From a virus: DNA of 64,000 nucleotides. Under the pieces are notes generated by a model. That model was not told the origin of the DNA and searched no databases. It saw only the letters and a list, made by a program, of their open reading frames with translations. Position 1 is the first letter of the stretch. Each line of letters opens with the position of its first letter. The stretch is from UHGV virus genome UHGV-0112180; one strand, written 5' to 3'. Below are positions 1,823 to 52,707 of this stretch, piece by piece. Made by a program: the position numbers and the translations under genes.

Positions 1823-2728
1823 TTAACGTTCTGCTTCACCACCAACGGCCTCCACCAGCGAAGTGAACATCGCGGATAATTCAGCAGTAAACAGGATAAA
1901 GTCAGCGTCAAATCGTTGCGCAACATCCTCTCGATCAATATCGTCGTTCTGGTCGTACAATTCGTCGCTGAACGACAAAGCCTTGATACTCATATCGTCA
2001 TTCAGTCTGAAAAATGCACGGTCTTGCCAGTTAACCGCAACTGTGGTTGCAACCTTACCAGCTTCTATATGACTCATGATCTCGTCGGATAGCAGGTCCA
2101 CTTTTTTGCAGCGGACCGCGCCGCCATCATCAAGCAATGCTTTTAAGGTCGCTTCCTCACCGGCACGGAAACCGTTCGGGAAGCCATTTTTAATCCAGCC
2201 AGTGATGGTCAGTTCTAATGGGTCTTTCGGAGAGAAGGGGACAACGGGCAAGCTGCCAAGCGATTTCCGTAACAAAGCCAGCTGATCCTCTGCTTTTTTA
2301 GCACTGCTGGCCTCGACAAAAACCAGATGATTGCTTCGGTCTATCAGGATTTTAGCGACTGATTTTCTCGTGAAAGCACGAGGAAGCAGAGAGTGAAGCA
2401 CTTCATCCTTCAGCGAATCTTTTTCAGTCTTCTTCAGCTTTCTGTCTTGCTCTTCTTCAAGTGTCAGGATTTTTTTCTGTAACTCTTCTTTGAGCACTTG
2501 AGAGGGTAGGATTTTTTCCTCTCGTTTATGCTGTATCAGAAGAAAACCCTGGTATTCATGGGTGAGGTTGTCACCAAGAACGGAGGTCCAACCAGCTTTA
2601 GCCATATCCTGAGAACCGCATGGGGTAAACACAAACTTGCTAAGGGCTGCATTTACTTCTGCAGTATCCCAGCTAACTTCGCGTGAAAGACGATAGATGA
2701 AGATATTTTTGAAAGCGACTGATCTCAT
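1823..2728 (-). CDS. RdgC-like recombination-associated protein (P1 HrdC analogue)
   Basis: Near full-length similarity to E. coli RdgC from memory: [83 protein letters not shown]. Confidence 0.85.
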
Positions 2729-2735
2729 GTCTCAC

Positions 2736-2779
2736 CATTTGTGTTAGAAAATACATATTAATTATCTAACACAAATGGG
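2736..2779. repeat. Palindrome: 13-bp inverted repeats (CCATTTGTGTTAG / CTAACACAAATGG) separated by an AT-rich spacer
   Basis: Read directly; lies between the RdgC-like start and the upstream gene end; contains the recurring TTCTAACA motif. Confidence 0.4.
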
Positions 2780-2787
2780 TGCATTTT

Positions 2788-3441
2788 CTATCCTTTCTTG
2801 AAATCGAAGTTGCCAGCAGTGGCCTGAAAGGTTCCTCCTGCCTTGAAAGCTATGTCTCCGTTAGCGGTGACAGCTATATTTTCCCCATTAACATTGATGT
2901 TGTTGGCTGATTTGACGTTAACACTCCCTCCTGCATTCACGATTACATCAGCCGGACCAATGATATATATCTGCCCGGACTCATTCATGCCAATCCTTGA
3001 GCCTGCTGCCGTATTGGCAATTTCATAGCCGCCACCAGCAGTTCGTACTTCAAGAATATTGTTGCGGTGAATAACGAAGTCTTTCGTTGCTGAGATTTGG
3101 GGGCGGGGAGGTGCTCCATCTACTTCCGGCGGCGTCCAGCCGTTGCCTTTGCCAGATGCTTCTGGTGCAACGTTTGGAATTCCTCCCGGTGCATCCTGAG
3201 CGGCACCAACTATCATTGGGCGTCTGGTGTCTATTCGACCGTTAACATCTAAATAAGGAAACTCTACCCAGACCAGGTCACCTTTGACTGTAGGTACAAA
3301 AGCGTTCCCGATGGGTAACTGGTATTCCGCCCAGGGTAGATCGTCATCAGGAACGCCATTCCAGTCAGGTAAAACACGGACTTGAGCACGCATAAGCCCT
3401 GCCGGGTGCACAGTTCCAACAATTTGCGCTCTACGCTTCAT
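2788..3441 (-). CDS. Baseplate hub/spike protein (gpV-like N-terminal OB fold plus beta-helical repeats)
   Basis: N-terminal pattern GTVHP...RAQVRVLPDW...GDLVWVEFPYLDVNG typical of baseplate assembly protein V; C-terminal GGSVNVKSANNINVNGENIAVTANGDIAFKAGG repeats. Confidence 0.5.
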   Translation of the reverse strand: MKRRAQIVGTVHPAGLMRAQVRVLPDWNGVPDDDLPWAEYQLPIGNAFVPTVKGDLVWVEFPYLDVNGRIDTRRPMIVGAAQDAPGGIPNVAPEASGKGNGWTPPEVDGAPPRPQISATKDFVIHRNNILEVRTAGGGYEIANTAAGSRIGMNESGQIYIIGPADVIVNAGGSVNVKSANNINVNGENIAVTANGDIAFKAGGTFQATAGNFDFKKG

Positions 3442-5189: not shown

Positions 5190-5989
5190 TCGATCACTCC
5201 GTTTTGAGTCGTATCAAAATTCCTGGCAGGTATGCAGTAGTAAAGCGAACCAACATGCTGTGTGCCGTAGCTAAAAATACGGTGCACGTACCACCAGCGG
5301 CGCGCTACGCCGTTTACCATCTCTTCATTCCATTCAAGAATTGAGCCGACGGGGACGTTATTTGCTGCAATACGCAGAATCAGAACATCATCGGTTAAGC
5401 CATCCTGCTCACCGTCTGCGTCAATCGCATGGAAAGAGTCACGCCCGTCAGGGTTATCCAGCACATAAACGATTTCAGGTTCCTGGTAAGTCAGTTCGCG
5501 TTGGTTGTTATCCAGTTCAGTGAATGACTCTTCTCCTGTTTCGTCGCTGACTACCCCATATGTGCCAACATCTGGTCGATATAAGAGAGCCTGAAACGCG
5601 TCTGGGCTGGATTCAATAATCAGCATCCAGTCTGCGCGGATTTGGTCGTTAAAGGCTTTATGCCCGTTATAGCGTGCTTTTAACTGTGGAGTCGGTTCTC
5701 TGCCAGCCAGGGAAGATGGAAGTATGGCTATATCTGATTCGCCAGCATCCGGAGTAAGGCCACCGTTGCTATCAGCAAAATTATCATGGCTATCAGCTTG
5801 GGCGGCGGGTTGCTCTTCCAGAATGCTGAATGAATCCGAACCGGTATTGCCATGTTCCGGCGCGCCTCCTGCATTCGCTTCAATCGGCGCTGGCGTTTCT
5901 CTCTGCGTGCTGTCATGTTCTGACTCCTTACTTGCCAGGTTTGCATCGTCAGCAAACCATTCGTCAAAACGGCCCATAAGCATCCTCAA
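5186..5989 (-). CDS. Hypothetical acidic phage protein
   Basis: 267-aa ORF overlapping the downstream gene by 4 nt; acidic low-complexity N-terminus. Confidence 0.35.
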   Translation of the reverse strand: MRMLMGRFDEWFADDANLASKESEHDSTQRETPAPIEANAGGAPEHGNTGSDSFSILEEQPAAQADSHDNFADSNGGLTPDAGESDIAILPSSLAGREPTPQLKARYNGHKAFNDQIRADWMLIIESSPDAFQALLYRPDVGTYGVVSDETGEESFTELDNNQRELTYQEPEIVYVLDNPDGRDSFHAIDADGEQDGLTDDVLILRIAANNVPVGSILEWNEEMVNGVARRWWYVHRIFSYGTQHVGSLYYCIPARNFDTTQNGVIE

Positions 5990-6851: not shown

Positions 6852-6870
6852 TATAGTAAAACACATACAA

Positions 6871-6900
6871 AAAGCCCACTTAGCAAGTGGGCTTTCCTTT
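6871..6900 (+). terminator. Rho-independent terminator after higA
   Basis: AAAGCCCACTT-AGCA-AGTGGGCTTT followed by CCTTTG. Confidence 0.55.
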
Positions 6901-6907
6901 GTAATTA

Positions 6908-7108
6908 ATGAACATTAAACCTATCCGTACAGAACAAGATTATGAGGCCGCACTGCGTGCGGTCGAACCGATGTTCGATAACGAACCGGAAATGAATACT
7001 CCGGAAGGTGATTTCTTTGAGGTTATGAGTCTTCTCATTGAGGAGTACGAGAAGAAACATTACCCAATTCAACCACCATCACCTGTTGAATCTTTTAACT
7101 ATCCATAA
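6908..7108 (+). CDS. Orphan antitoxin-like fragment: resembles the N-terminal (non-HTH) domain of two-domain HigA-type antitoxins; HTH half absent
   Basis: MNIKPIRTEQDYEAALRAVEPMFDNEPEMNTPEGDFFEVMSLLIEEYEKKHYPI then stop; the expected HTH is missing. Possibly a truncated gene. Confidence 0.4.
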   Translation: MNIKPIRTEQDYEAALRAVEPMFDNEPEMNTPEGDFFEVMSLLIEEYEKKHYPIQPPSPVESFNYP

Positions 7109-13606: not shown

Positions 13607-13918
13607 ATTGGCAGCCTCCTTTGACTAAGTTAAGGAGCTACCGCGTGAGGTTCCAATCTCAATGGCGGTAGCACTGACTGGGTTGGAACTACCGGCGTCA
13701 AAGGGAACCGGCCTGCCTTTCGGCAGCCCAGCCAGCACTACCATTGATCTCTGAGCTAAACGCTAAGTATGGCTGTGCGATGGCATGACACAAAAAAAGA
13801 CGCGTTCGGCGTCTGTGTCGCCTTTGACATTATCCGGGGTTCCAATCCCGGCACCCGTTTTTCTAAGGTGCCGTAGAAATATACCCCACGATAATGCCAG
13901 GGCGCAACAGTCAGTATT

Positions 13919-36183: not shown

Positions 36184-36758
36184 CAGAAAGCCTCCCAGTC
36201 AGTCGCGATAATATCCACACCAGTTGCAAACCAGTCTGTCTGCGCCTGTAAATCACCATTCATCATTACCAGGCGAGGCATCACCATCACATCGCACCCT
36301 TCCACAATATCGAATGCCTCTTCCGGCAAGAATTCGAAGAGCTTTTCTTTGCTGCCAATGCTGCCACGGAACATCGATATATAGCTCCCTTTAGGCCATG
36401 ATGTCCGCCGGGCATCAAGCCCTTTCATCATCCAGTAAAAAGCCGAGGAAAAAGGGATATTCTTTTTGCCAATGATTACATTATTCGCTTCTGTGTACTT
36501 CAGGAACTTAACTAACCTTACCATTGACTCGGATAACGCAACGTATGGCTCATGATTGATTGCTGACACGCTTACACCGTGCAATCCAACGCTTACCACT
36601 GTCATATCGCCGCTCTGTGCGGTTTCGATATTGACGCCTTTGCGAACTAATGAGGCGTAAAGTTCCTCTCGCTTTTGGGTCCAGCGTTCCCGCTTCCCTA
36701 TGAAGTCACTCAAAATGAGATCTTCTTCTGCATATGCGTTATCGTTCGCCATTAACAT
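36183..36758 (-). CDS. Protein with DUF2829-like (Tad2-like) C-terminal domain
   Basis: AFYWMMKGLDARRTSWPKGSYISMF...TDWFATGVDIIATDWEAF resembles the DUF2829 signature. Confidence 0.4.
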   Translation of the reverse strand: MLMANDNAYAEEDLILSDFIGKRERWTQKREELYASLVRKGVNIETAQSGDMTVVSVGLHGVSVSAINHEPYVALSESMVRLVKFLKYTEANNVIIGKKNIPFSSAFYWMMKGLDARRTSWPKGSYISMFRGSIGSKEKLFEFLPEEAFDIVEGCDVMVMPRLVMMNGDLQAQTDWFATGVDIIATDWEAF

Positions 36759-36962
36759 AACGTCTCCTTTTTACACGCGCGACCATCTCTCGGTTAAACC
36801 GATAGAGATGTCGAAACTTCGTATTAATTAAGGGTTACAGCCTGAGCGGCTATATGATGAATTGAAAGGAGTTGTGGCGGTGGTGCCTCCACCTGCCAGG
36901 TCAGCCACGCCCGGCGACGACACTTATCAGAACCTCAATGAATGAAAATGGCTTCGTCACGA

Positions 36963-37030
36963 GCGCATAGCCGCAATTACCACAACGGAAACGGCGCTCG
37001 CGTTAATTAAACGCCTTTTCCTGTTGTGCG
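36963..37030. repeat. Hairpin element, member of the ACAACGG...CCTGTTGTG family (unit R1)
   Basis: GCGCATAGCCGCAATTACCACAACGG...CCTTTTCCTGTTGTGCGCC; shares its 5' box with the unit at 38141. Confidence 0.35.
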
Positions 37031-37212
37031 CCGTACTCTTCCGGCTGTCACACCGAATCGCCAGGATGGTGAGTCCTCGGTCCGACGATATGAACGGGGC
37101 TTGCACATTCCGGCTACCTGGTTTGTTGCCTGAGCTAGGGGAAAAGGTAACCCCTTTAACGTCACCAGACCGCTAACGACGCATGTGCCAGACGCCGTGT
37201 TACAACCAAATA

Positions 37213-37288
37213 TGGTGGCCCCTACCGGACTTGAACCGGTGACCGTGCGATTATGAGTCGCCAGCTCTAACCACTGAGCTAAGGGGCC
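37213..37288 (-). tRNA. tRNA with CAU anticodon (Ile2/lysidine-type, ileX-like; Met not excluded)
   Basis: GGCCCCTTAGCTCAGTGGTTAGAGC...GACTCATAATC...GGTTCAAGTCCGGTAGGGGCCACCA; 7-bp acceptor stem, canonical D and T arms, encoded CCA. Confidence 0.8.
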
Positions 37289-37297
37289 AATTAGTTT

Positions 37298-37411
37298 TTA
37301 TTTTCGACGCCTGAGATTCTTCGCTACTTGTTCTACTCCGTATACGATCACAAGCAGAAATAGCAAAGACCATCCAGGGTTCTTATCAATATACGTCCAA
37401 AAATCCATCAT
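37298..37411 (-). CDS. Small membrane peptide (37 aa), tci-operon member
   Basis: MMDFWTYIDKNPGWSLLFLLVIVYGVEQVAKNLRRRK; start overlaps upstream stop (ATGA). Confidence 0.25.
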   Translation of the reverse strand: MMDFWTYIDKNPGWSLLFLLVIVYGVEQVAKNLRRRK

Positions 37412-37572
37412 GAGTTCCTGAACGCAGCTTTAATAATCGGCAATAGCAATACCACAGCTACTGAAACCAGTGCCCCATCAGCCAACACCGACATCACTTT
37501 GCTGGTGAAATCCACCAGCACGGACAAAACGAGAAAACCAATGGCGCACGCAATACGCGCCTTGCCAATCAT
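37408..37572 (-). CDS. Small membrane protein (54 aa), tci-operon member
   Basis: MIGKARIACAIGFLVLSVLVDFTSKVMSVLADGALVSVAVVLLLPIIKAAFRNS; start overlaps the TerB-like stop (TAATG). Confidence 0.35.
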   Translation of the reverse strand: MIGKARIACAIGFLVLSVLVDFTSKVMSVLADGALVSVAVVLLLPIIKAAFRNS

Positions 37573-38006
37573 TACAGATAATCTTCCACACGAAGGCCCA
37601 AACGACGGCCTACTTCTTCCAGTACTTTGTGTTCTGCTGGCTCGATTTCACCGTCCGCTTCTGCAATCGTCAGCATGTTAACGAATACTTCTTCCGCTTC
37701 TTTTGGATCATTTTTGATATCTTCAATTTCGCGAAGGATATTCATGCGACCAACACGGAAACCAGCTTCCAGTTGCTCAGTAAAACGGGTGATTGTTGCG
37801 GTAATTTCGTTGCCAAAATGACTTAAGCGAGGATTAGAGCGGACAAGCTGATCAAGTTTCGCTGTTTCTTCCTTTTCGATTTCACCATCTGCGGCAGACA
37901 CCAACAAACAGCCACCGATAATGGCCTCCATCAGATCGCGATTCTCAACCCTTTTCAGCTCTACTTTTGCTGAAGCGACTTTCTTACCGAAAAATTTACC
38001 GAACAT
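37572..38006 (-). CDS. TerB-family tellurite-resistance-like protein (P1 TciA analogue)
   Basis: Two AADGEI / AEADGEI TerB-type repeats in a 144-aa protein. Confidence 0.65.
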   Translation of the reverse strand: MFGKFFGKKVASAKVELKRVENRDLMEAIIGGCLLVSAADGEIEKEETAKLDQLVRSNPRLSHFGNEITATITRFTEQLEAGFRVGRMNILREIEDIKNDPKEAEEVFVNMLTIAEADGEIEPAEHKVLEEVGRRLGLRVEDYL

Positions 38007-38273
38007 TGGTTATCCCTCAATAAACATGACGTATTTATTAGGTTGCGGTGCCTGGTGCCTCCAGGTGACGTTAACCAGTTAACAATTAACGCCGGGATGT
38101 TTGACTTAACCACTAAGGAGGATTGTTTTAACTGTTCCGCGTGCGCATAGCCGCATTCACCGCAATGGTAAGAGCACTTGGCTGGCTGGGCGGCGATGAC
38201 GCCTGTACGCATTTGGTGATCCGGTTCTGCTTCCGGCATTCGCTTAATTAGCCAAATACTCTTAACGTTGCAC

Positions 38274-38360
38274 TGGCGGAGAGTAATGGAATCGAACCAT
38301 CATCGCTTGCGCAATGGGACGGTTTTCAAGACCGTTTGAGCACCATGCTCCCTACTCTCC
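38274..38360 (-). tRNA. tRNA-Ser(UGA)-like, type II with long variable arm and atypically short D-loop (possible pseudo-tRNA)
   Basis: Acceptor GGAGAGT/ACTCTCC + G + CCA; anticodon arm ACGGT-CTTGAAA-ACCGT; T-arm GATGG-TTCGATT-CCATT; D-loop only about 5 nt. Confidence 0.45.
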
Positions 38361-38462
38361 AGTGATTGTGATGGTCGGTGCTGAACTCCGACACAGGGTT
38401 GTAGCAAGCCCCGCAAAGCGCGCACTACTGTAGTTGCGGCACATCAGCCTGTGCATTCACCA

Positions 38463-38552
38463 CAATGTTGAGAACACTGGTTGTCACGCTGCAACGCAAC
38501 ATTTATTCGTAGATTGGGATATGACCCCGTTACGCCAGTGTTCTCAACGTTG
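38463..38552. repeat. Hairpin element of the tRNA-array repeat family (18-bp near-perfect inverted repeat)
   Basis: CAATGTTGAGAACACTGG ... CCAGTGTTCTCAACGTTG with about 55-nt loop. Confidence 0.45.
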
Positions 38553-38690
38553 TAGTGCCGGTTACGGTTCCGGCCAGGCCTCTTCCTCAACGGGGTGTTC
38601 TCCATACGGACTACCGTTTATTGGTCGTTCCTGCGGTTTATGTTGTGAAGCCAGATGCTTATCTTCTGGTTGCTTCAAAGAGCTGCACTT

Positions 38691-38770
38691 CATCACAACG
38701 GTAAGAGCACTCGATGCATTTAAGCCAAGCCCCATAAGGGAGAATGCCCTTACCTGTTGTGTTGTGATGA
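38691..38770. repeat. Hairpin element of the tRNA-array repeat family
   Basis: CATCACAACGGTAAGAGCAC ... GCCCTTACCTGTTGTGTTGTGATG. Confidence 0.45.
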
Positions 38771-38884
38771 CCGGTGCTGATCTCCGGCTTGCGGTTATTT
38801 CAGACTCTCACGGGCGTTTATTTGCCCCGCCGAACAGCTCTTTTCCGCAATAGCTGCAATGTCTTTCGCGCATCAGCCTGCGCA

Positions 38885-38977
38885 TTCATCACAACGGTAA
38901 GGGTACTTCGTAGGGATTCGAACCCTCTGCCAAGCACGGCGATCTCCGACGTCGCAAAATACCCTTACCTGTTGTGT
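38885..38977. repeat. Hairpin element of the tRNA-array repeat family; interior carries a tRNA T-arm-like GGGATTCGAACCC
   Basis: CATTCATCACAACGGTAAGGGTAC ... TACCCTTACCTGTTGTGTTGG, ending immediately before tRNA-Thr. Confidence 0.45.
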
Positions 38978-39054
38978 TGGTGCCGGTTAACGGACTCGAA
39001 CCGCTGACATCCTGCTTACAAGGCAGGCGCTCTACCAACTGAGCTAAACCGGCA
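38978..39054 (-). tRNA. tRNA-Thr (UGU)
   Basis: TGCCGGTTTAGCTCAGTTGGTAGAGCGCCTGCCTTGTAAGCAGGATGTCAGCGGTTCGAGTCCGTTAACCGGCACCA; perfect acceptor and anticodon stems. Confidence 0.8.
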
Positions 39055-39057
39055 ATT

Positions 39058-39144
39058 TGGTGGGGAGTGATGGAGTCGAACCACCCGAGTCGCAATGACA
39101 GTAGATTTACAGTCTACCCCGCTACCCCTACGGACTAACTCCCC
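39058..39144 (-). tRNA. tRNA-Tyr (GUA)-like, type II
   Basis: Acceptor GGGGAGT/ACTCCCC + A + CCA; anticodon arm GTAGA-CTGTAAA-TCTAC; long variable arm; D-arm somewhat atypical. Confidence 0.55.
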
Positions 39145-39149
39145 TGAAT

Positions 39150-39226
39150 TGGCGATGGTGGGTGGATTCGAACCACCGACCGACAGCTTAGAAGGCTGCT
39201 GCTCTATCCTACTGAGCTACACCACC
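39150..39226 (-). tRNA. tRNA-Arg (UCU)
   Basis: GGTGGTGTAGCTCAGTAGGATAGAGC...CCTTCTAAG...GGTGGTTCGAATCCACC...GCCA; anticodon loop CUUCUAA as in argU. Confidence 0.75.
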
Positions 39227-39426
39227 ACTGTGCCGGGTACGTCTCCGGCGAGGGCTTCCACCTCCGTATGCTTTTCGGCGCACCGCGCCCTGGCTGCAAT
39301 TCAGTAACAGGGGATGCATAACCCTGGCTTCCAGCGTGATTAGCGCCTTCAGCATGACGGGATATACCCGTAACCAACAAACTTTCCCATATACCATCAA
39401 GCAATGGCTGTTACGCGGGAGGGACG

Positions 39427-39505
39427 TAACAGGTAAGGGCGCTGACCAGAAAGACCTGACCCTTCTCATTCATCTGGTTAATCACACCAGCGCCCTTGCC
39501 TGTTA
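39427..39505. repeat. Hairpin element of the tRNA-array repeat family (17-bp inverted repeat)
   Basis: TAACAGGTAAGGGCGCTG ... CAGCGCCCTTGCCTGTTA. Confidence 0.45.
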
Positions 39506-39730
39506 TGCCTCCCCGTTCCCTAATACACAGACGGGGACACTCTGCGGTCGATTTTTTGACGGGGGACGACTCATACCCCGTGGCGTCAGGCTTCTTAGGC
39601 CGCTACCATCATCAGATCATCGTTTGCATTTACTTTAATGGTCGGGTTCTAAACCGCCGCAAAGTCGCTAACCATGACGAAAACCCTAAAAAAGCCCACC
39701 CGAAGATGGGCAAATACGCTACATCTCACA

Positions 39731-39809
39731 CAAGAAAGAAGCCGACTGCCTGAGCTGGATTCACTTTCAAATGCCCGCTGAAAGGGATCACAAGTCGGCT
39801 TCTTTCTTG
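39731..39809. repeat. Large hairpin (17-bp perfect inverted repeat) in the noncoding region
   Basis: CAAGAAAGAAGCCGACT ... AGTCGGCTTCTTTCTTG with about 45-nt loop. Confidence 0.4.
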
Positions 39810-40461
39810 ATGCGGCACTCTCTCCGCCCGTCACCGCTCTGTCTCGGTTGTCGCGTTTGCCACGCCAGCCATAACGAGGTTTAAAGTCTTTTCACGTTCC
39901 CATCACTCGACTGCCGTCTGTGGCTGTTCGTTGCAGCGGGGGTGCCTCCCCCTGGGGATATCCCCGGCCTTACCCCATTCTTTCAAGACACAATGCAAGG
40001 CCACATCCGCATAGGTGCATTACCGCAACATTAAGGAGACTCAGGGCAAAAGGTAACCGCCACAAAAATCCCTATGCCTCCTTAATGTTGAAGATGTGCA
40101 TTGATGATTAGATGCAGCATGTACCGTTACTCTCTGCCGGACCATCATCAATGAACACCTTAAAAAGACCTTCCGTGGCTCAACATGTATTGTCGTTTAC
40201 TCCGCAAAGTGCTCTCTCTGAAACCACTTTCCGCACTAAACCTGTTGAACTTTGGTCTGCTCGGTGCCAAAGCGTGCTCTTGGTTTACTATACTTTTCTA
40301 ACACTTTAATTTGTTAATTGCTGGTGGGCAAACAATAACCAATAAGTGACTATCAAGCCCAGCAAGCGAAACGTGGGTACCGCCCACCAGCAAGGAAAAT
40401 TCTATGTTAAGTCATCTTCACAATCAATACATTCGAATTGTGATTTTAGATTTCTAACACA

Positions 40462-41670
40462 TTATTTCCCATAAAGATCTTCTACACCCCCATTCTTCTT
40501 ATCCCATTCGTTCGCCCATACCCGGCAAGCGTCAATGATTTCCTGACGACGATCTCCTTGCATGAACGGAATGCTTTCATGGAAACAGCTTGGAATGCAG
40601 GCCACACTGAATACAGTATCAAACTCCGTCTGCTTGATTGCCTCCAGCGTCTCCGGACGCATTTTTAATTCATCGATTGGCGCATCCTTAGAGTCCATAA
40701 TCCGGCGATATAAGCGCGGAAAATCCGTCTCCAGGTACGCCATAATTTTATCTGCGAGACATTCGTCTATGTCGGTATTCCAGTCCTTTTCGAAGCCCGG
40801 CAGGCGATAGTAAAGCGGCGTTCCCCATACCGATGGGATCACATCCATCGTTAACAGGCGATTAGTTCTGATTTGTTGATGGTAATTAGCCGTCAGCAGT
40901 GCTTCGCCACGCTGCCCAGTTTCCGCAACCAGGCCGTGCGGATACTCATGGATGTAGGCAATGGCATCCCTTCCATCATACATAAGTGGAAATGTCTCTG
41001 GTCTTTGTCCCATGCCACAAGCACGGTTCAGATCGTGACCAAGCTGTGAGCACTCTCGCTTTAATGTTTCGATAATGCTCTGCGCTGTAGCCAACTTTTT
41101 ACGCAGTGTGACGCCTTCGCCTTGATAATCAATGCATTGCTGATTGAGCTTGGTTAAACGCTCTTTTAGTTCCCGGCGCTCTCTTTTCAGCGTGCGGTTA
41201 TCCTTCTCCGCAACATCCAGCCGCTTTGTCAGGCTGGGCGGATAGTCTTTTTTGTAACGGTTCAAATCGGCTTCGGCAGATTTACGCAGTGTATTTGCCT
41301 GTTCAAGACGCGCTTCCAGATTGCCGATCTCATTACGCATATTCGCGGCAAATTGATTAACTGCATCGCCCAGGCTTTCAACTGTCGCTGATACGCCTGT
41401 GACTTGTGAAAAACGGATCAAGCCATCATTAACGGCTTGTTGGTATTCCTCAAACTGATCCACCAGCTTATTGTAATCAACTGCCCCATCATCAAGCAGC
41501 TTGTTGATTTCCGCCACCAGGTTATCTGTAGTGGCAATGACACTCTCGTGCAGTCGCTTTGACAGGTCATCTCCCGGATTCCGTTTCTGTATAAGAGCGA
41601 TTTGTGTGCGCAGCGTTTCAATTGCTGTCGAGATAATTTCCAGATTAGAAGTATCAGTGTGTTGACTCAT
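40462..41670 (-). CDS. Hypothetical coiled-coil protein
   Basis: About 400-aa ORF; start ambiguous (GTG at 41685 or ATG at 41670). Confidence 0.4.
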   Translation of the reverse strand: MSQHTDTSNLEIISTAIETLRTQIALIQKRNPGDDLSKRLHESVIATTDNLVAEINKLLDDGAVDYNKLVDQFEEYQQAVNDGLIRFSQVTGVSATVESLGDAVNQFAANMRNEIGNLEARLEQANTLRKSAEADLNRYKKDYPPSLTKRLDVAEKDNRTLKRERRELKERLTKLNQQCIDYQGEGVTLRKKLATAQSIIETLKRECSQLGHDLNRACGMGQRPETFPLMYDGRDAIAYIHEYPHGLVAETGQRGEALLTANYHQQIRTNRLLTMDVIPSVWGTPLYYRLPGFEKDWNTDIDECLADKIMAYLETDFPRLYRRIMDSKDAPIDELKMRPETLEAIKQTEFDTVFSVACIPSCFHESIPFMQGDRRQEIIDACRVWANEWDKKNGGVEDLYGK

Positions 41671-52294: not shown

Positions 52295-52707
52295 AGTTAC
52301 GGCCTCACTAACAGGTTTAACAACCTGCTACCCGCTGTCAAACAGGTGGCAGGACGTGACAGGGTTGACAGACTGGCGTTAGTGAAACCAGCAGGCCGAA
52401 GCCTCCCCATCACGCCCCACCATAATTCGGGCGTAACGCGGTTTACGGACACAAAAATACCGCAATATCGGAAATCTGCGGTTGTCCGCACTAACATTCA
52501 GGCTGTCAAACCTGGTCGCAGAATTTGCTACGACGGCATGAATATAAGCCTGAAAACATGGAAGATCAACTAAAAATTTCAGCAATGGATGACTTCAGTC
52601 GATGATGCAGATCATACATTCCGATTTAGAAACAGCAAATTAATTTTCTAACACAGATTATCGAGCGAGCATTTTCCGATCATTGGGATGTTTTGTAGAC
52701 ACACAGG

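Follow-up and report, generated by a model that had tools for sequence, protein, structure and literature searches.

Phage T7 has a set of early-region RNase III sites, R1.1 among them, which are related hairpins within a single phage that segment a polycistronic early transcript. Sites of the R1.1 type have an upper and a lower stem with an asymmetric internal loop or bulge, and a cut at the 3′-side junction leaves a protective 3′ hairpin; we know of no sharing of these sites among unrelated phage groups. Integron attC sites and the promoter–stem-loop (PeSL) cassettes of T4-type phages take the form of imperfect inverted repeats in which the ends are conserved, the centre varies and a base is extrahelical, and they mark the boundaries of exchangeable modules. 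In the Escherichia coli operon metY–nusA–infB, an RNase III hairpin lies between the tRNA metY and rimP (Régnier and Grunberg-Manago 1989); cleavage of this stem-loop, just 3′ of a tRNA in a mixed tRNA–mRNA operon, frees the tRNA and decides what becomes of the mRNA downstream. In the dicBF operon (ydfABC–dicF–dicB) of the E. coli K-12 prophage Qin, a 190-nt precursor of DicF has a 5′ end that depends on RNase III, in agreement with Faubladier 1990, and the bands of the ydfA upstream transcript are undetected in an rnc mutant (Ragunathan et al., J Bacteriol 2023). What has been published on Qin is the position of a cut and describes no family of hairpins.

The DNA analysed here, referred to as the window, is a stretch of 64,000 nucleotides from a phage-plasmid of the D6/P1-like type. 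A covariance model places seven related hairpins (units A to G) in this 64-kb window, all within 3.1 kb (36975–40097). An earlier note on this DNA had counted at least five and ended the feature at 39510; the family is borne out by the covariance model and by the folds, but it has seven members in the window, and unit G carries its end to 40097. The model was built on 16 seeds that include all seven window units, which therefore match by construction (44–72 bits, E-values 3.5e-10 to 7e-18, minus strand); relatives outside the window that were not among the seeds also match. No further convincing match was found in the 64-kb window, the sole extra candidate being a weak one at 6861–6909. We assign a probability of roughly 60% to the reading that the units are RNase III processing stems through which tRNA, sRNA and mRNA pieces are cut out of long untranslated early transcripts, that their conserved arms are also recombination breakpoints at which modules are shuffled, and that the loops carry tRNA debris, the units not being simply decayed tRNAs.

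The five minus-strand tRNAs listed in the earlier note were all recovered by ARAGORN, which called no others in the region: tRNA(CAU) at 37213–37288, whose P1 homologue is annotated as tRNA-Ile2, tRNA-Ser (UGA) at 38274–38360, tRNA-Thr (UGU) at 38978–39053, tRNA-Tyr (GUA) at 39058–39144, and tRNA-Arg (UCU) at 39150–39226. Four of the five reach the Rfam tRNA threshold; for tRNA-Ser the top Rfam match is tRNA-Sec, at 45.1 bits slightly under the threshold of that family. The last three stand in tandem in the order Arg–Tyr–Thr (38978–39226, minus strand), with spacers of 5 and 4 nt. On the same strand as the tRNAs and the hairpin units, the ORF list and the annotations of D6, P1, and P7 give tciA, a TerB-like ORF (37572–38006), and tciB (37408–37572), which together are the mRNA portion of the minus-strand transcription unit that also holds the tRNAs. 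The tciA leader (38044–38164, minus strand) starts at a GGUGAAUGCGG motif 3′ of unit B; the 3′ flank of unit B and this leader match the central part of Rfam STnc100, a model of STnc100/PasD prophage sRNAs (model positions 31–147), partially and at 40.1 bits against a gathering score of 47. By the ORF list and the P1 annotation, the tRNA and hairpin region corresponds to over 2 kb of RNA, most of it untranslated, that lies upstream of coding genes, and its transcription is suggested by the annotation of the P1 ban operon. A promoter-like site lies at 40399–40427 (minus strand), upstream of unit G. The only convincing terminator found by a terminator scan of the tRNA and hairpin region is a terminator-like hairpin, GCCCAUCUUCGGGUGGGC followed by U6, at 39694–39711 (minus strand), common to the 3′ end of the annotated "dicF-like region" of P1.

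Two of the units directly follow a tRNA. The stem of unit B (38155–38277, minus strand, 66.9 bits; stem 38161–38272) begins 1 nt past the CCA of tRNA-Ser, encloses a large loop and extends to about 26 bp, and that of unit E (38884–38981, minus strand, 65 bits; stem 38890–38976, with a bulged A) begins 1 nt past the CCA of tRNA-Thr. Unit A (36975–37033, minus strand, 47.4 bits, fold z-score −4.4; stem 36981–37028, which has a bulged A; its apical region is short) sits 184 nt downstream of tRNA(CAU); between the two, CTGAGCTAGGGG at 37130–37141 looks like a decayed tRNA copy. Units C, D, and G have no intact tRNA directly upstream. Unit C (38455–38559, minus strand, 71.7 bits, z-score −8.3; stem 38461–38554) has GUUGAG/CUCAAC arms, lacks a bulge and is preceded by what sequence comparison identifies as a remnant of a tRNA-Thr 3′ end (38556–38568). 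Unit D (38688–38766, minus strand, 65 bits; stem 38694–38761, with a bulged A) is present in P7 and absent from P1 and D6, and unit G (40018–40097, minus strand, 48.6 bits, z-score −5.3; stem 40024–40092) has AUUAAG/CUUAAU arms. The strand of unit F (39422–39512) is ambiguous: its stem (39427–39505) is perfect and without a bulge, and it scores 44 bits on the minus strand against 31 bits on the plus strand, with 18 base pairs on the minus strand and 20 on the plus strand. Unit F is distinct from the region annotated as "dicF-like" in P1. Two smaller hairpins recur among the units on the minus strand. The first, GUCGG-AGUUCAGCA-CCGAC in the RNA (hp2), is conserved 13 nt before tRNA-Ser (38374–38392), and its variants at 38771–38787 and 38651–38669 differ by compensatory stem changes. 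The second, GCACAGGCUGAUGUGC in the RNA (hp1), lies 3′ of unit C after GUGAAU (38439–38454), with a copy after unit E (38868–38883) and shorter forms after unit B (38144–38155) and unit A (36964–36975).

Each unit folds as a single long hairpin, with z-scores of −4.3 to −8.3 against 200 shuffles, none of which folds equally well. The common anatomy is a lower stem of 6 bp (CACAAC/GUUGUG), an optional one-base bulge, an upper stem of 14 bp holding a conserved U·G wobble, and an unrelated variable loop. The bulge (in the transcribed, minus strand an A of the 5′ arm, seen on the plus strand as a T of the 3′ arm) had been described as general, but in the window it is limited to units A, D, and E and missing from the other four. 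Likewise, the loops are not confined to 45–60 nt: the sequence beyond the 20-bp stem runs from about 7 nt in unit A to about 70 nt in unit B. The conserved parts are the two arms of inverted repeats at irregular spacings, in keeping with the earlier statement that these are not CRISPR repeats.

When the 16 seeds were folded together with RNAalifold, 12 of 19 pairs were maintained through changes on both sides. When 28 loop types were aligned by their stems only, 95.5% of cells were paired and both sides had changed in 15 of 20 pairs; no shuffle out of 500 attained these values, and in slid controls 33–54% were paired. Read on the tRNA strand, the stems hold 47 G·U pairs against 12 A·C mismatches (p = 5e-6), or 29 against 12 when the conserved wobble is left out (p = 0.012), and the excess is found in 20 types and reversed in none. 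This excess places the fold in an RNA of the transcribed (tRNA-sense) strand. The folding and alignment of the units, with strong stem covariation and wobble asymmetry, thus support the structured RNA element that had been suggested. Intrinsic terminators were rejected as an identity for the units: their stems are followed by RUGAAU with no U runs, and none of the seven full stems was called in a terminator scan. The two plus-strand calls of that scan within unit A (37000–37014) and unit D (38735–38752) are small apical sub-hairpins on the non-transcribed strand.

Outside the window, the family was found in P1, P7, D6, SSU5-like phage-plasmids, an rV5-like virulent phage, Pantoea and Mixta prophages, and the dicBF operon of E. 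coli K-12 Qin. No Rfam family covers any unit, at gathering or permissive thresholds, the matches to units C and F being just spurious, sub-threshold ones to miRNA precursors. Across 128 sources, a unit begins 1–2 nt past the CCA after 108 of 108 tRNA-Thr and 42 of 42 tRNA-Ser, in a sample ascertained by the way the loci behind these 150 cases were gathered, that is, by a hairpin-pattern search. The same arrangement after tRNA-Ser was read by eye in the rV5-like phage, whose locus had been found through tRNA similarity and not through the hairpin.

The match in Qin (L133:1669–1763) lies between ydfC and dicF and was obtained with a covariance model that contained no Qin seed (29.4 bits, E = 2e-7). 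This score is much weaker than those of the P1-type units. The Qin copy has the same layout of lower stem, bulge and upper stem, with the bulge position and the U·G wobble as in the family. It also shares their mosaic context: the GGUGAAUGCGG… leader downstream, in the dicF–dicB spacer, aligns closely with, and is almost identical to, the tciA leader of the window. The operon around it is likewise an early, repressor-controlled one. Unlike the window units, the Qin copy is single, not adjacent to a tRNA and diverged (CAUAAC, G bulge). A count of 190 nt upstream from the 3′ end of DicF (1935–1941) leads to 1746–1752, within the Qin 3′ arm (1739–1758); with the start A939 read from the promoter, position 813/814 falls between CUUCCG and GUUGUGG, opposite the Qin bulge. 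This mapping combines a gel length (190 nt) with an inferred transcription start and is accurate to a few nucleotides only. The RNase III-dependent end of the 72-nt DicF isoform lies 6 nt before a GUGAAU motif and a coverage-based call at 1649470 just past it, both in the Qin segment that aligns with the 3′ arm and flank of unit B. In another E. coli prophage locus (L134), the order is a weak hairpin match, DicF and an STnc100-like segment. RNase III accommodates a duplex of about 22 bp (PMC6212723), which the unit stems of 20–26 bp fit.

Processing, which the earlier note had offered as one possibility, is the best-supported function by homology to the Qin dicBF stem. The hairpins would sit in the tRNA-sense (minus-strand) RNA of a long early transcript, untranslated for most of its length and homologous to the leader of the P1 ban operon, where host RNase III would recognise the stem and cut at or near the junction of lower and upper stem. 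Such a cut would part the last tRNA of each cluster from the downstream RNA and, with the hairpin starting 1–2 nt past the CCA, would leave exonucleases a short 3′ trailer; it would also separate the intervening noncoding modules and the downstream mRNAs (tciA–tciB and the genes beyond) from one another. That RNase III cuts the copies in the window, at what site, and in one arm or both, we infer. If cleavage were confined to the 3′ arm, as mapped in Qin, it would by itself leave the upstream tRNA unreleased. Conservation of the arms at the DNA level would in turn provide short homologies for the duplication, deletion and exchange of hairpin–spacer–tRNA modules, both inside a phage lineage and across lineages, the loops turning over and gathering tRNA debris. 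The loose sequence preferences of RNase III alone leave the conservation of 12–13 nt per arm unexplained; common descent, recombination or a sequence-specific partner may contribute. The likeness drawn to the metY hairpin is one of position, and that hairpin is a single chromosomal site, whereas the units are a repeated, mobile family. The T7 sites differ from the units in sequence and are not known to be associated with tRNAs.

The foremost alternative, though an unlikely one, is that the primary role lies at the DNA level, with the conserved inverted repeats delimiting modules or acting as recombination sites for the exchange of tRNA and small-RNA cassettes between phages, on the analogy of the PeSL cassettes or of folded single-strand sites such as integron attC. 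The 128 sources contain about 80 distinct array architectures with fixed spacer lengths, and otherwise unrelated P1-like and SSU5-like phage-plasmids have identical modules in common. As had been proposed for a recombination element, the arms coincide with the breakpoints between P1, P7, D6 and the window, which lie inside the 3′ arm for P1 and D6 and inside the 5′ arm for P7; the arms also hold AAC…GTT with one extrahelical base in about half, which reads as in attC sites. Crossovers in both arms, however, fit general homologous recombination and not a site-specific cut, and any conserved repeat is expected to recombine as a by-product. Recombinase genes are not regular neighbours (L007 has an integrase at a distance of 2 kb, but the annotations of L008, P1, D6, the rV5-like locus and Qin show none), and both the surplus of G·U relative to A·C on one strand and the conserved U·G wobble suggest that selection acts on RNA, not on duplex or cruciform DNA. 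Nor do the units contain a promoter, a further difference from the attC and PeSL elements. Their identification as integron attC sites was rejected: an integrase is annotated beside no array in P1, D6, P7, L008, the rV5-like locus or Qin, and the crossovers in different arms contradict a fixed crossover position of the attC type.

Slightly less probable again is that the stems are carriers whose apical part (a small regulatory RNA, a decoy or a tRNA-like piece) is the product freed by stem cleavage, like the cargo of a pri-miRNA. The unit B loop is about 88% identical to the sequence following tRNA-Ser in the rV5-like virulent phage, where the surrounding stems differ, and Qin dicF lies between CUGCAACG, which resembles the start of a B-type 5′ arm, and the segment aligning with the unit B 3′ arm, where the 72-nt isoform ends. 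The degenerate stem proposed around dicF, though, gave no convincing fold. A payload would not be required in a family with about 30 unrelated loop types, some of just 7–8 nt (unit A), and several loops hold obvious tRNA debris. The good conservation of loops within a type is weak evidence, as it reflects recent common ancestry and loop and stem rates are inseparable in that analysis.

It is improbable that the hairpins act without RNase III, whether as stabilisers or barriers (3′ hairpins against exonucleases, 5′ hairpins shielding the RNA downstream from RNase E, or structure keeping Rho off the untranslated leader) or by mimicking an RNase P substrate to set the 3′ end of the last tRNA. Such roles would suit more than 2 kb of mostly untranslated RNA ahead of coding genes; the hairpin also takes the place of a downstream tRNA in a tandem array, small conserved hairpins precede the hairpins and tRNA-Ser, and the loss of the ydfA upstream bands in the Qin rnc mutant fits a role of the 3′ hairpin after processing. 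A generic need for structure, however, leaves the fixed geometry of 6 + 14 bp, the bulge position and the conserved wobble unexplained, and the RNase III-dependent end in the Qin homologue unaccounted for. As for RNase P, the 3′ flank is RUGAAU and not the RCCA that aids this enzyme, and the first base of the stem reads as C where G is usual.

That the units are merely decayed tRNA genes or other non-functional repeat debris is hardly credible. The T-arm-like segment GGGATTCGAACCC reported earlier for unit E is present, reading AGGGTTCGAATCCCT then ACGAAGTA on the tRNA strand as part of a T-arm and acceptor-like remnant; this 20-nt T-arm matches a tRNA-Ile of phage SUSP2, GGGGTCATATCCC in unit C and AGAGTTCGACTCTCT in a type from L006 are likewise T-arm-like, and tRNA 3′ and 5′ remnants adjoin units C and A. 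Such segments occur in some loops (E, C and a few types elsewhere) and are absent from most; the conserved part, a 20-bp stem with compensatory changes, has no tRNA counterpart. No loop matches a tRNA in an Rfam search of 36700–40500, even at E up to 5, none of the units in the 128 sources encloses a tRNA, and the family persists in prophages lacking a tRNA within 8 kb; because of the stem covariation, a reading as decayed tRNAs only is already contradicted.

The hairpin family is thus real, an uncatalogued set of RNA stems of about 20 base pairs. Because the Qin copy, the one relative studied by experiment, lies where RNase III cuts, the units are most likely RNA-processing sites and not dead tRNA genes, and the stems punctuate the leaders of early operons and the tRNA arrays in several enterobacterial phages that are unrelated to one another.

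The stretch at 36800-39700 has 96.9% identity to phage D6 and 92% identity to parts of P1 and P7, and a 1 kb piece is 100% identical to a 93 kb E. coli plasmid. Its homologue in P1 is the ban operon leader, which is controlled by C1 and runs promoter, 'dicF-like region', trnA, trnT, tciA-tciB-tciC, trnI, and ban. Its counterpart in the window is entirely on the minus strand, with tciA and tciB at 37408-38006, and contains all five tRNAs that the earlier note had listed: CAU (37213-37288), Ser-UGA (38274-38360), Thr-UGU (38978-39053), Tyr-GUA (39058-39144), and Arg-UCU (39150-39226). No match to the P1 C1-operator consensus could be detected in the window at up to three mismatches, and a promoter scan returned fewer sites than were seen in shuffles; no promoter was assigned to the tRNA/hairpin transcription unit. 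Two separate immunity-type RNA loci were also observed on the minus strand of the window, C4 antisense RNA with isrK (13661-13871) and C4 with its a1/b1 target (52342-52547), all above the Rfam gathering scores.

Direct and inverted repeat searches recovered the conserved arms of the hairpins (families D1 and D5, pairs I3 and I9), and every candidate unit folded as a long hairpin on either strand. When 16 copies from the window, P1, and four plasmids were aligned, 12 of the 19 pairs in the consensus stem were found to be kept with changes on both sides. A 20 bp stem served as the basis for a covariance model, which matched seven units in the 64 kb window between 36975 and 40097, all on the minus strand: A (36975-37033), B (38155-38277), C (38455-38559), D (38688-38766), E (38884-38981), F (39422-39512), and G (40018-40097). 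The hairpin family described in the earlier note is thus real, with its count raised by the model from five units to seven and its extent carried to 40097. Fold z-scores of the individual units ranged from -4.3 to -8.3 relative to shuffles. No convincing match to the model was found elsewhere in the window; a weak one at 6861-6909 on the plus strand (22 bits, E = 4e-4, 37% GC), far from the array, is probably an unrelated hairpin.

On the transcribed strand, the consensus reads 5'-CACAAC-(A)-GGUAAGRGCAUUGG ... CCAGUGCYCUUACC-GUUGUG-RUGAAU, with lower and upper stems of 6 bp and 14 bp and, in roughly half the types, a bulged A. Compensatory arm variants include GUUGAG/CUCAAC, AUUAAG/CUUAAU, GGAAAA/UUUCC, and ACAGCG/CGCUGU. 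Covariation was assessed on a stems-only alignment of 28 different loop types, from which bulge bases had been taken out. In this alignment 95.5% of cells pair, a percentage inflated by the partial selection of units by pairing, and 15 of 20 pairs carry changes on both sides, a count unaffected by that selection. None of 500 shuffles reached any of these measures, and sliding the partner as a control lowered pairing to 33-54%. One conserved position is U·G in 18 of the 28 types, with C·G or U·A in the rest. Overall, 47 G·U stand against 12 A·C, and 29 against 12 without the conserved wobble column, with no type reversed; this excess argues for selection on the RNA fold of the tRNA strand, rather than on duplex DNA or the opposite strand. 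Unit F has a perfect stem, and its orientation is ambiguous.

Readings of the hairpins as attC sites, as intrinsic terminators, or as a CRISPR array were rejected, the last as the earlier note had already held. In P1 (locus L001), the genes upl and plp are annotated at 2660-3229 on the plus strand of the locus, opposite the tRNAs, and the homologous segment of the window is at ~38430-38980 on the plus strand. In P1, plp crosses units C and E and shares 30 nt with trnT, and upl overlaps a third unit (L001 2612-2701); neither gene is annotated in P7 or D6. The plp frame cannot be conserved in the window, where the additional D module brings in 196 nt, a length not divisible by 3, and with this frame broken a protein-coding reading of the plus strand across the hairpins was rejected. 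The upl and plp genes of P1 may not be real.

In the window, unit E starts 1 nt past the CCA of tRNA-Thr and unit B 1 nt past the CCA of tRNA-Ser. This placement was followed across 119 viral contigs from a pattern search together with phage and plasmid loci, using a unit detector that combined arm HMMs with a pairing check in place of a regular expression, which had been too noisy or too strict. The collected loci yielded 527 units, representing 102 distinct sequences and ~30 unrelated loop types. A unit lies 1-2 nt downstream of every tRNA-Thr (108 of 108) and every tRNA-Ser (42 of 42) in these loci, a sample biased by having been found via the hairpin, and no unit among them encloses a tRNA. 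In an rV5-like virulent phage found via tRNA similarity, a model match follows tRNA-Tyr and a unit B homologue, read by eye, lies directly after tRNA-Ser. Remnants of tRNAs precede units C and A; between tRNA(CAU) and unit A (37035-37150, minus strand), part of a tRNA 5' end is present as a second copy (CCCCTAGCTCAG), together with a GTTCATATC segment resembling those in some loops, and a decayed tRNA seems to lie directly upstream of unit A. Two small hairpins also recur between units with compensatory changes, namely GCRCAGGCUGAUGYGC, following RUGAAU, and a stem with the loop AGWUCAGCA, ahead of the next unit or of tRNA-Ser. In phage EmilHeitz (L128, minus strand), ARAGORN calls a tRNA-Ser(UGA) at 863-953 that is unannotated in the GenBank record, and gives unknown identity and a 4-base anticodon for the 97-nt tRNA-Lys annotated at 666-764.

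The family recurs in P1-like, D6-like, SSU5-like, rV5-like, and lambdoid elements. When one genome per species was scanned, copies with the exact pattern were confined to Pantoea, Mixta, an Escherichia species, and one uncultured bacterium. Two or three units, with no tRNA within 8 kb, are present at the loci of Pantoea and Mixta; those of Pantoea are placed just downstream of a CI-like repressor gene and its promoter region, before the first ORFs, and end with the STnc100-like leader also seen before tciA. Single units in other viral contigs follow promoter-like sequence (L021 and L083) or a terminator-like hairpin (L102), and Rfam gave no match for the units of these three loci.

A covariance model free of Qin sequence matched E. 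coli K-12's Qin prophage (locus L133, 1669-1763) between ydfC and dicF, scoring 29.4 bits (E = 2e-7 over 3 kb). The Qin unit folds as CCAUAAC(G)CG(A)AAGCGCAUGG ... CCGUGCGCUU(C)CGGUUGUGG, its bulge placed as in the rest of the family and its U·G wobble retained. The tciA leader of the window (38044-38164, minus strand), the source of a partial, sub-threshold match to Rfam STnc100, can be closely aligned with the Qin dicF-dicB spacer (L133 1961-2080) from GGUGAAUGCGG on, and is also homologous to a Pantoea prophage operon leader (L129 ~5690-5850). From this arrangement, STnc100-type prophage sRNAs may be processed leaders whose start directly follows one of the hairpins. A second E. coli prophage locus (L134, CP088669.1) has a weak unit match, DicF, and an STnc100-like segment in that order. 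There, the minus strand at 2223-2901 continues with a c4 target, isrK, and C4 RNA, such that dicBF-type and P1 immI-type RNA modules are joined within one transcript-sized stretch, ahead of genes for a Rha-family regulator and a cell-division inhibitor.

For the Qin unit, published transcript ends could be compared with the predicted stem. A 190-nt DicF species is lost in an rnc mutant, with its 5' end placed "between positions 813 and 814" by primer extension, and a 53-nt form requires RNase E (Ragunathan et al. 2023); Faubladier et al. (1990) agree on the RNase III-dependent 190-nt species. The sequence in Fig. S1 of Ragunathan et al. (2023) starts within the loop of the Qin unit. Set 190 nt upstream of the DicF 3' end (L133 1935, at most 1941 with the U tail), the 5' end falls at 1746-1752, within the 3' arm (1739-1758). 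If transcription starts at A939, as inferred from TTGACC-17-TAATCT, 813/814 corresponds to G1751|G1752, which is the junction of lower and upper stem, opposite the bulge. Bands of the upstream ydfA transcript are undetected without RNase III (Ragunathan et al. 2023), which fits a cut after which the upstream piece keeps the hairpin at its 3' end. A 72-nt DicF isoform supplies a second end that depends on RNase III, its 3' end, ~6 nt before GUGAAU, and a coverage-based site in the dicF-dicB spacer (1,649,470) is ~4 nt past this motif, inside the small hairpin; both lie in the segment aligning with the unit B 3' arm and flank. A folded stem around dicF itself was unsupported by minimum-free-energy folds.

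Unit F was also considered as the 'dicF-like region' of P1, an assignment that proved wrong: the P1 feature (L001 3809-3910) is ~170 nt further upstream than unit F (L001 3557-3637) and corresponds in the window to the terminator region at ~39694-39711. A 'distant' search of E. coli genomes with unit F returned P1-like plasmids only and no dicF locus, and no match to DicF was found in the window. On the minus strand, a strong terminator-like hairpin (39694-39711) follows a long inverted repeat (~39733-39812), and the 3' part of this segment (39690-39830) is common to the annotated region of P1. The segment could encode a terminator-ended small RNA where Qin has DicF.

The loops look dispensable and changeable, since they differ wholly from type to type, some measure only 7-8 nt, and tRNA debris is sometimes found in them. 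The exception is the unit B loop, which is ~88% identical in an rV5-like phage with different stems. A search with the unit E loop found no intact ancestral tRNA; loops may plausibly have arisen when the 5' arm of one unit paired with the 3' arm of its neighbor downstream and internal sequence was then deleted. About 80 different tRNA/unit orders occur among the loci, with fixed spacer lengths, and the same modules are found in SSU5-like phage-plasmids of E. coli and Klebsiella (~110 kb) that share only short segments with the region. Units E and D stand in tandem in the window, separated by a spacer; in P1 and D6, the 5' arm and loop of E are joined to the 3' flank of D, and in P7, D directly follows tRNA-Thr. 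These arrangements place the crossover within the 3' arm for P1 and D6 and within the 5' arm for P7, positions that point to homologous recombination between short conserved repeats rather than a site-specific system. It is conceivable, though we consider it unlikely, that the stem is a general-purpose, RNase III-cleavable holder of exchangeable RNA cargo, with loop contents (tRNA pieces, DicF-type regulators, and the conserved B-loop RNA) swapped by arm recombination and each released from the early transcript by the host enzyme. DicF itself would then be the cargo of a degraded holder, and the family would unite a system for exchanging small-RNA cassettes with a counterpart, in bacterial viruses, of pri-miRNA hairpins.

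We favor a reading of the units as RNase III processing stems. RNase III would cut the stems and split an untranslated early transcript into the precursor of a tRNA cluster, carrying a short 3' trailer, the noncoding pieces in between, and mRNAs starting at GUUGUG-RUGAAU. For the window units this step would follow by homology from Qin, the one case with experimental support, to within a few nucleotides. A precedent is the metY-nusA-infB site, a hairpin after a tRNA in a mixed operon at which RNase III cleavage frees the tRNA. RNase III stem-loops in phage early transcripts and bacterial operons, including the dicBF and metY sites, are well known, and the family therefore extends existing knowledge without introducing a new principle. 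A sequence-conserved, covarying hairpin family that abuts phage tRNA 3' ends, recurs across the P1-like to lambdoid elements, and marks breakpoints of module exchange was not found in Rfam or the searchable literature, a scope that excludes most subscription journals. The family is an RNA motif not in Rfam. It explains a hotspot of modular variation among P1-like plasmids and links regions so far studied separately, namely the P1 ban operon leader and its tRNAs, the tRNA arrays of SSU5-like phage-plasmids and rV5-like virulent phages, and the E. coli K-12 dicBF operon. The family also provides a testable account of how the 3' boundary of phage tRNAs is set within mixed operons and how downstream mRNAs are separated from the tRNAs.
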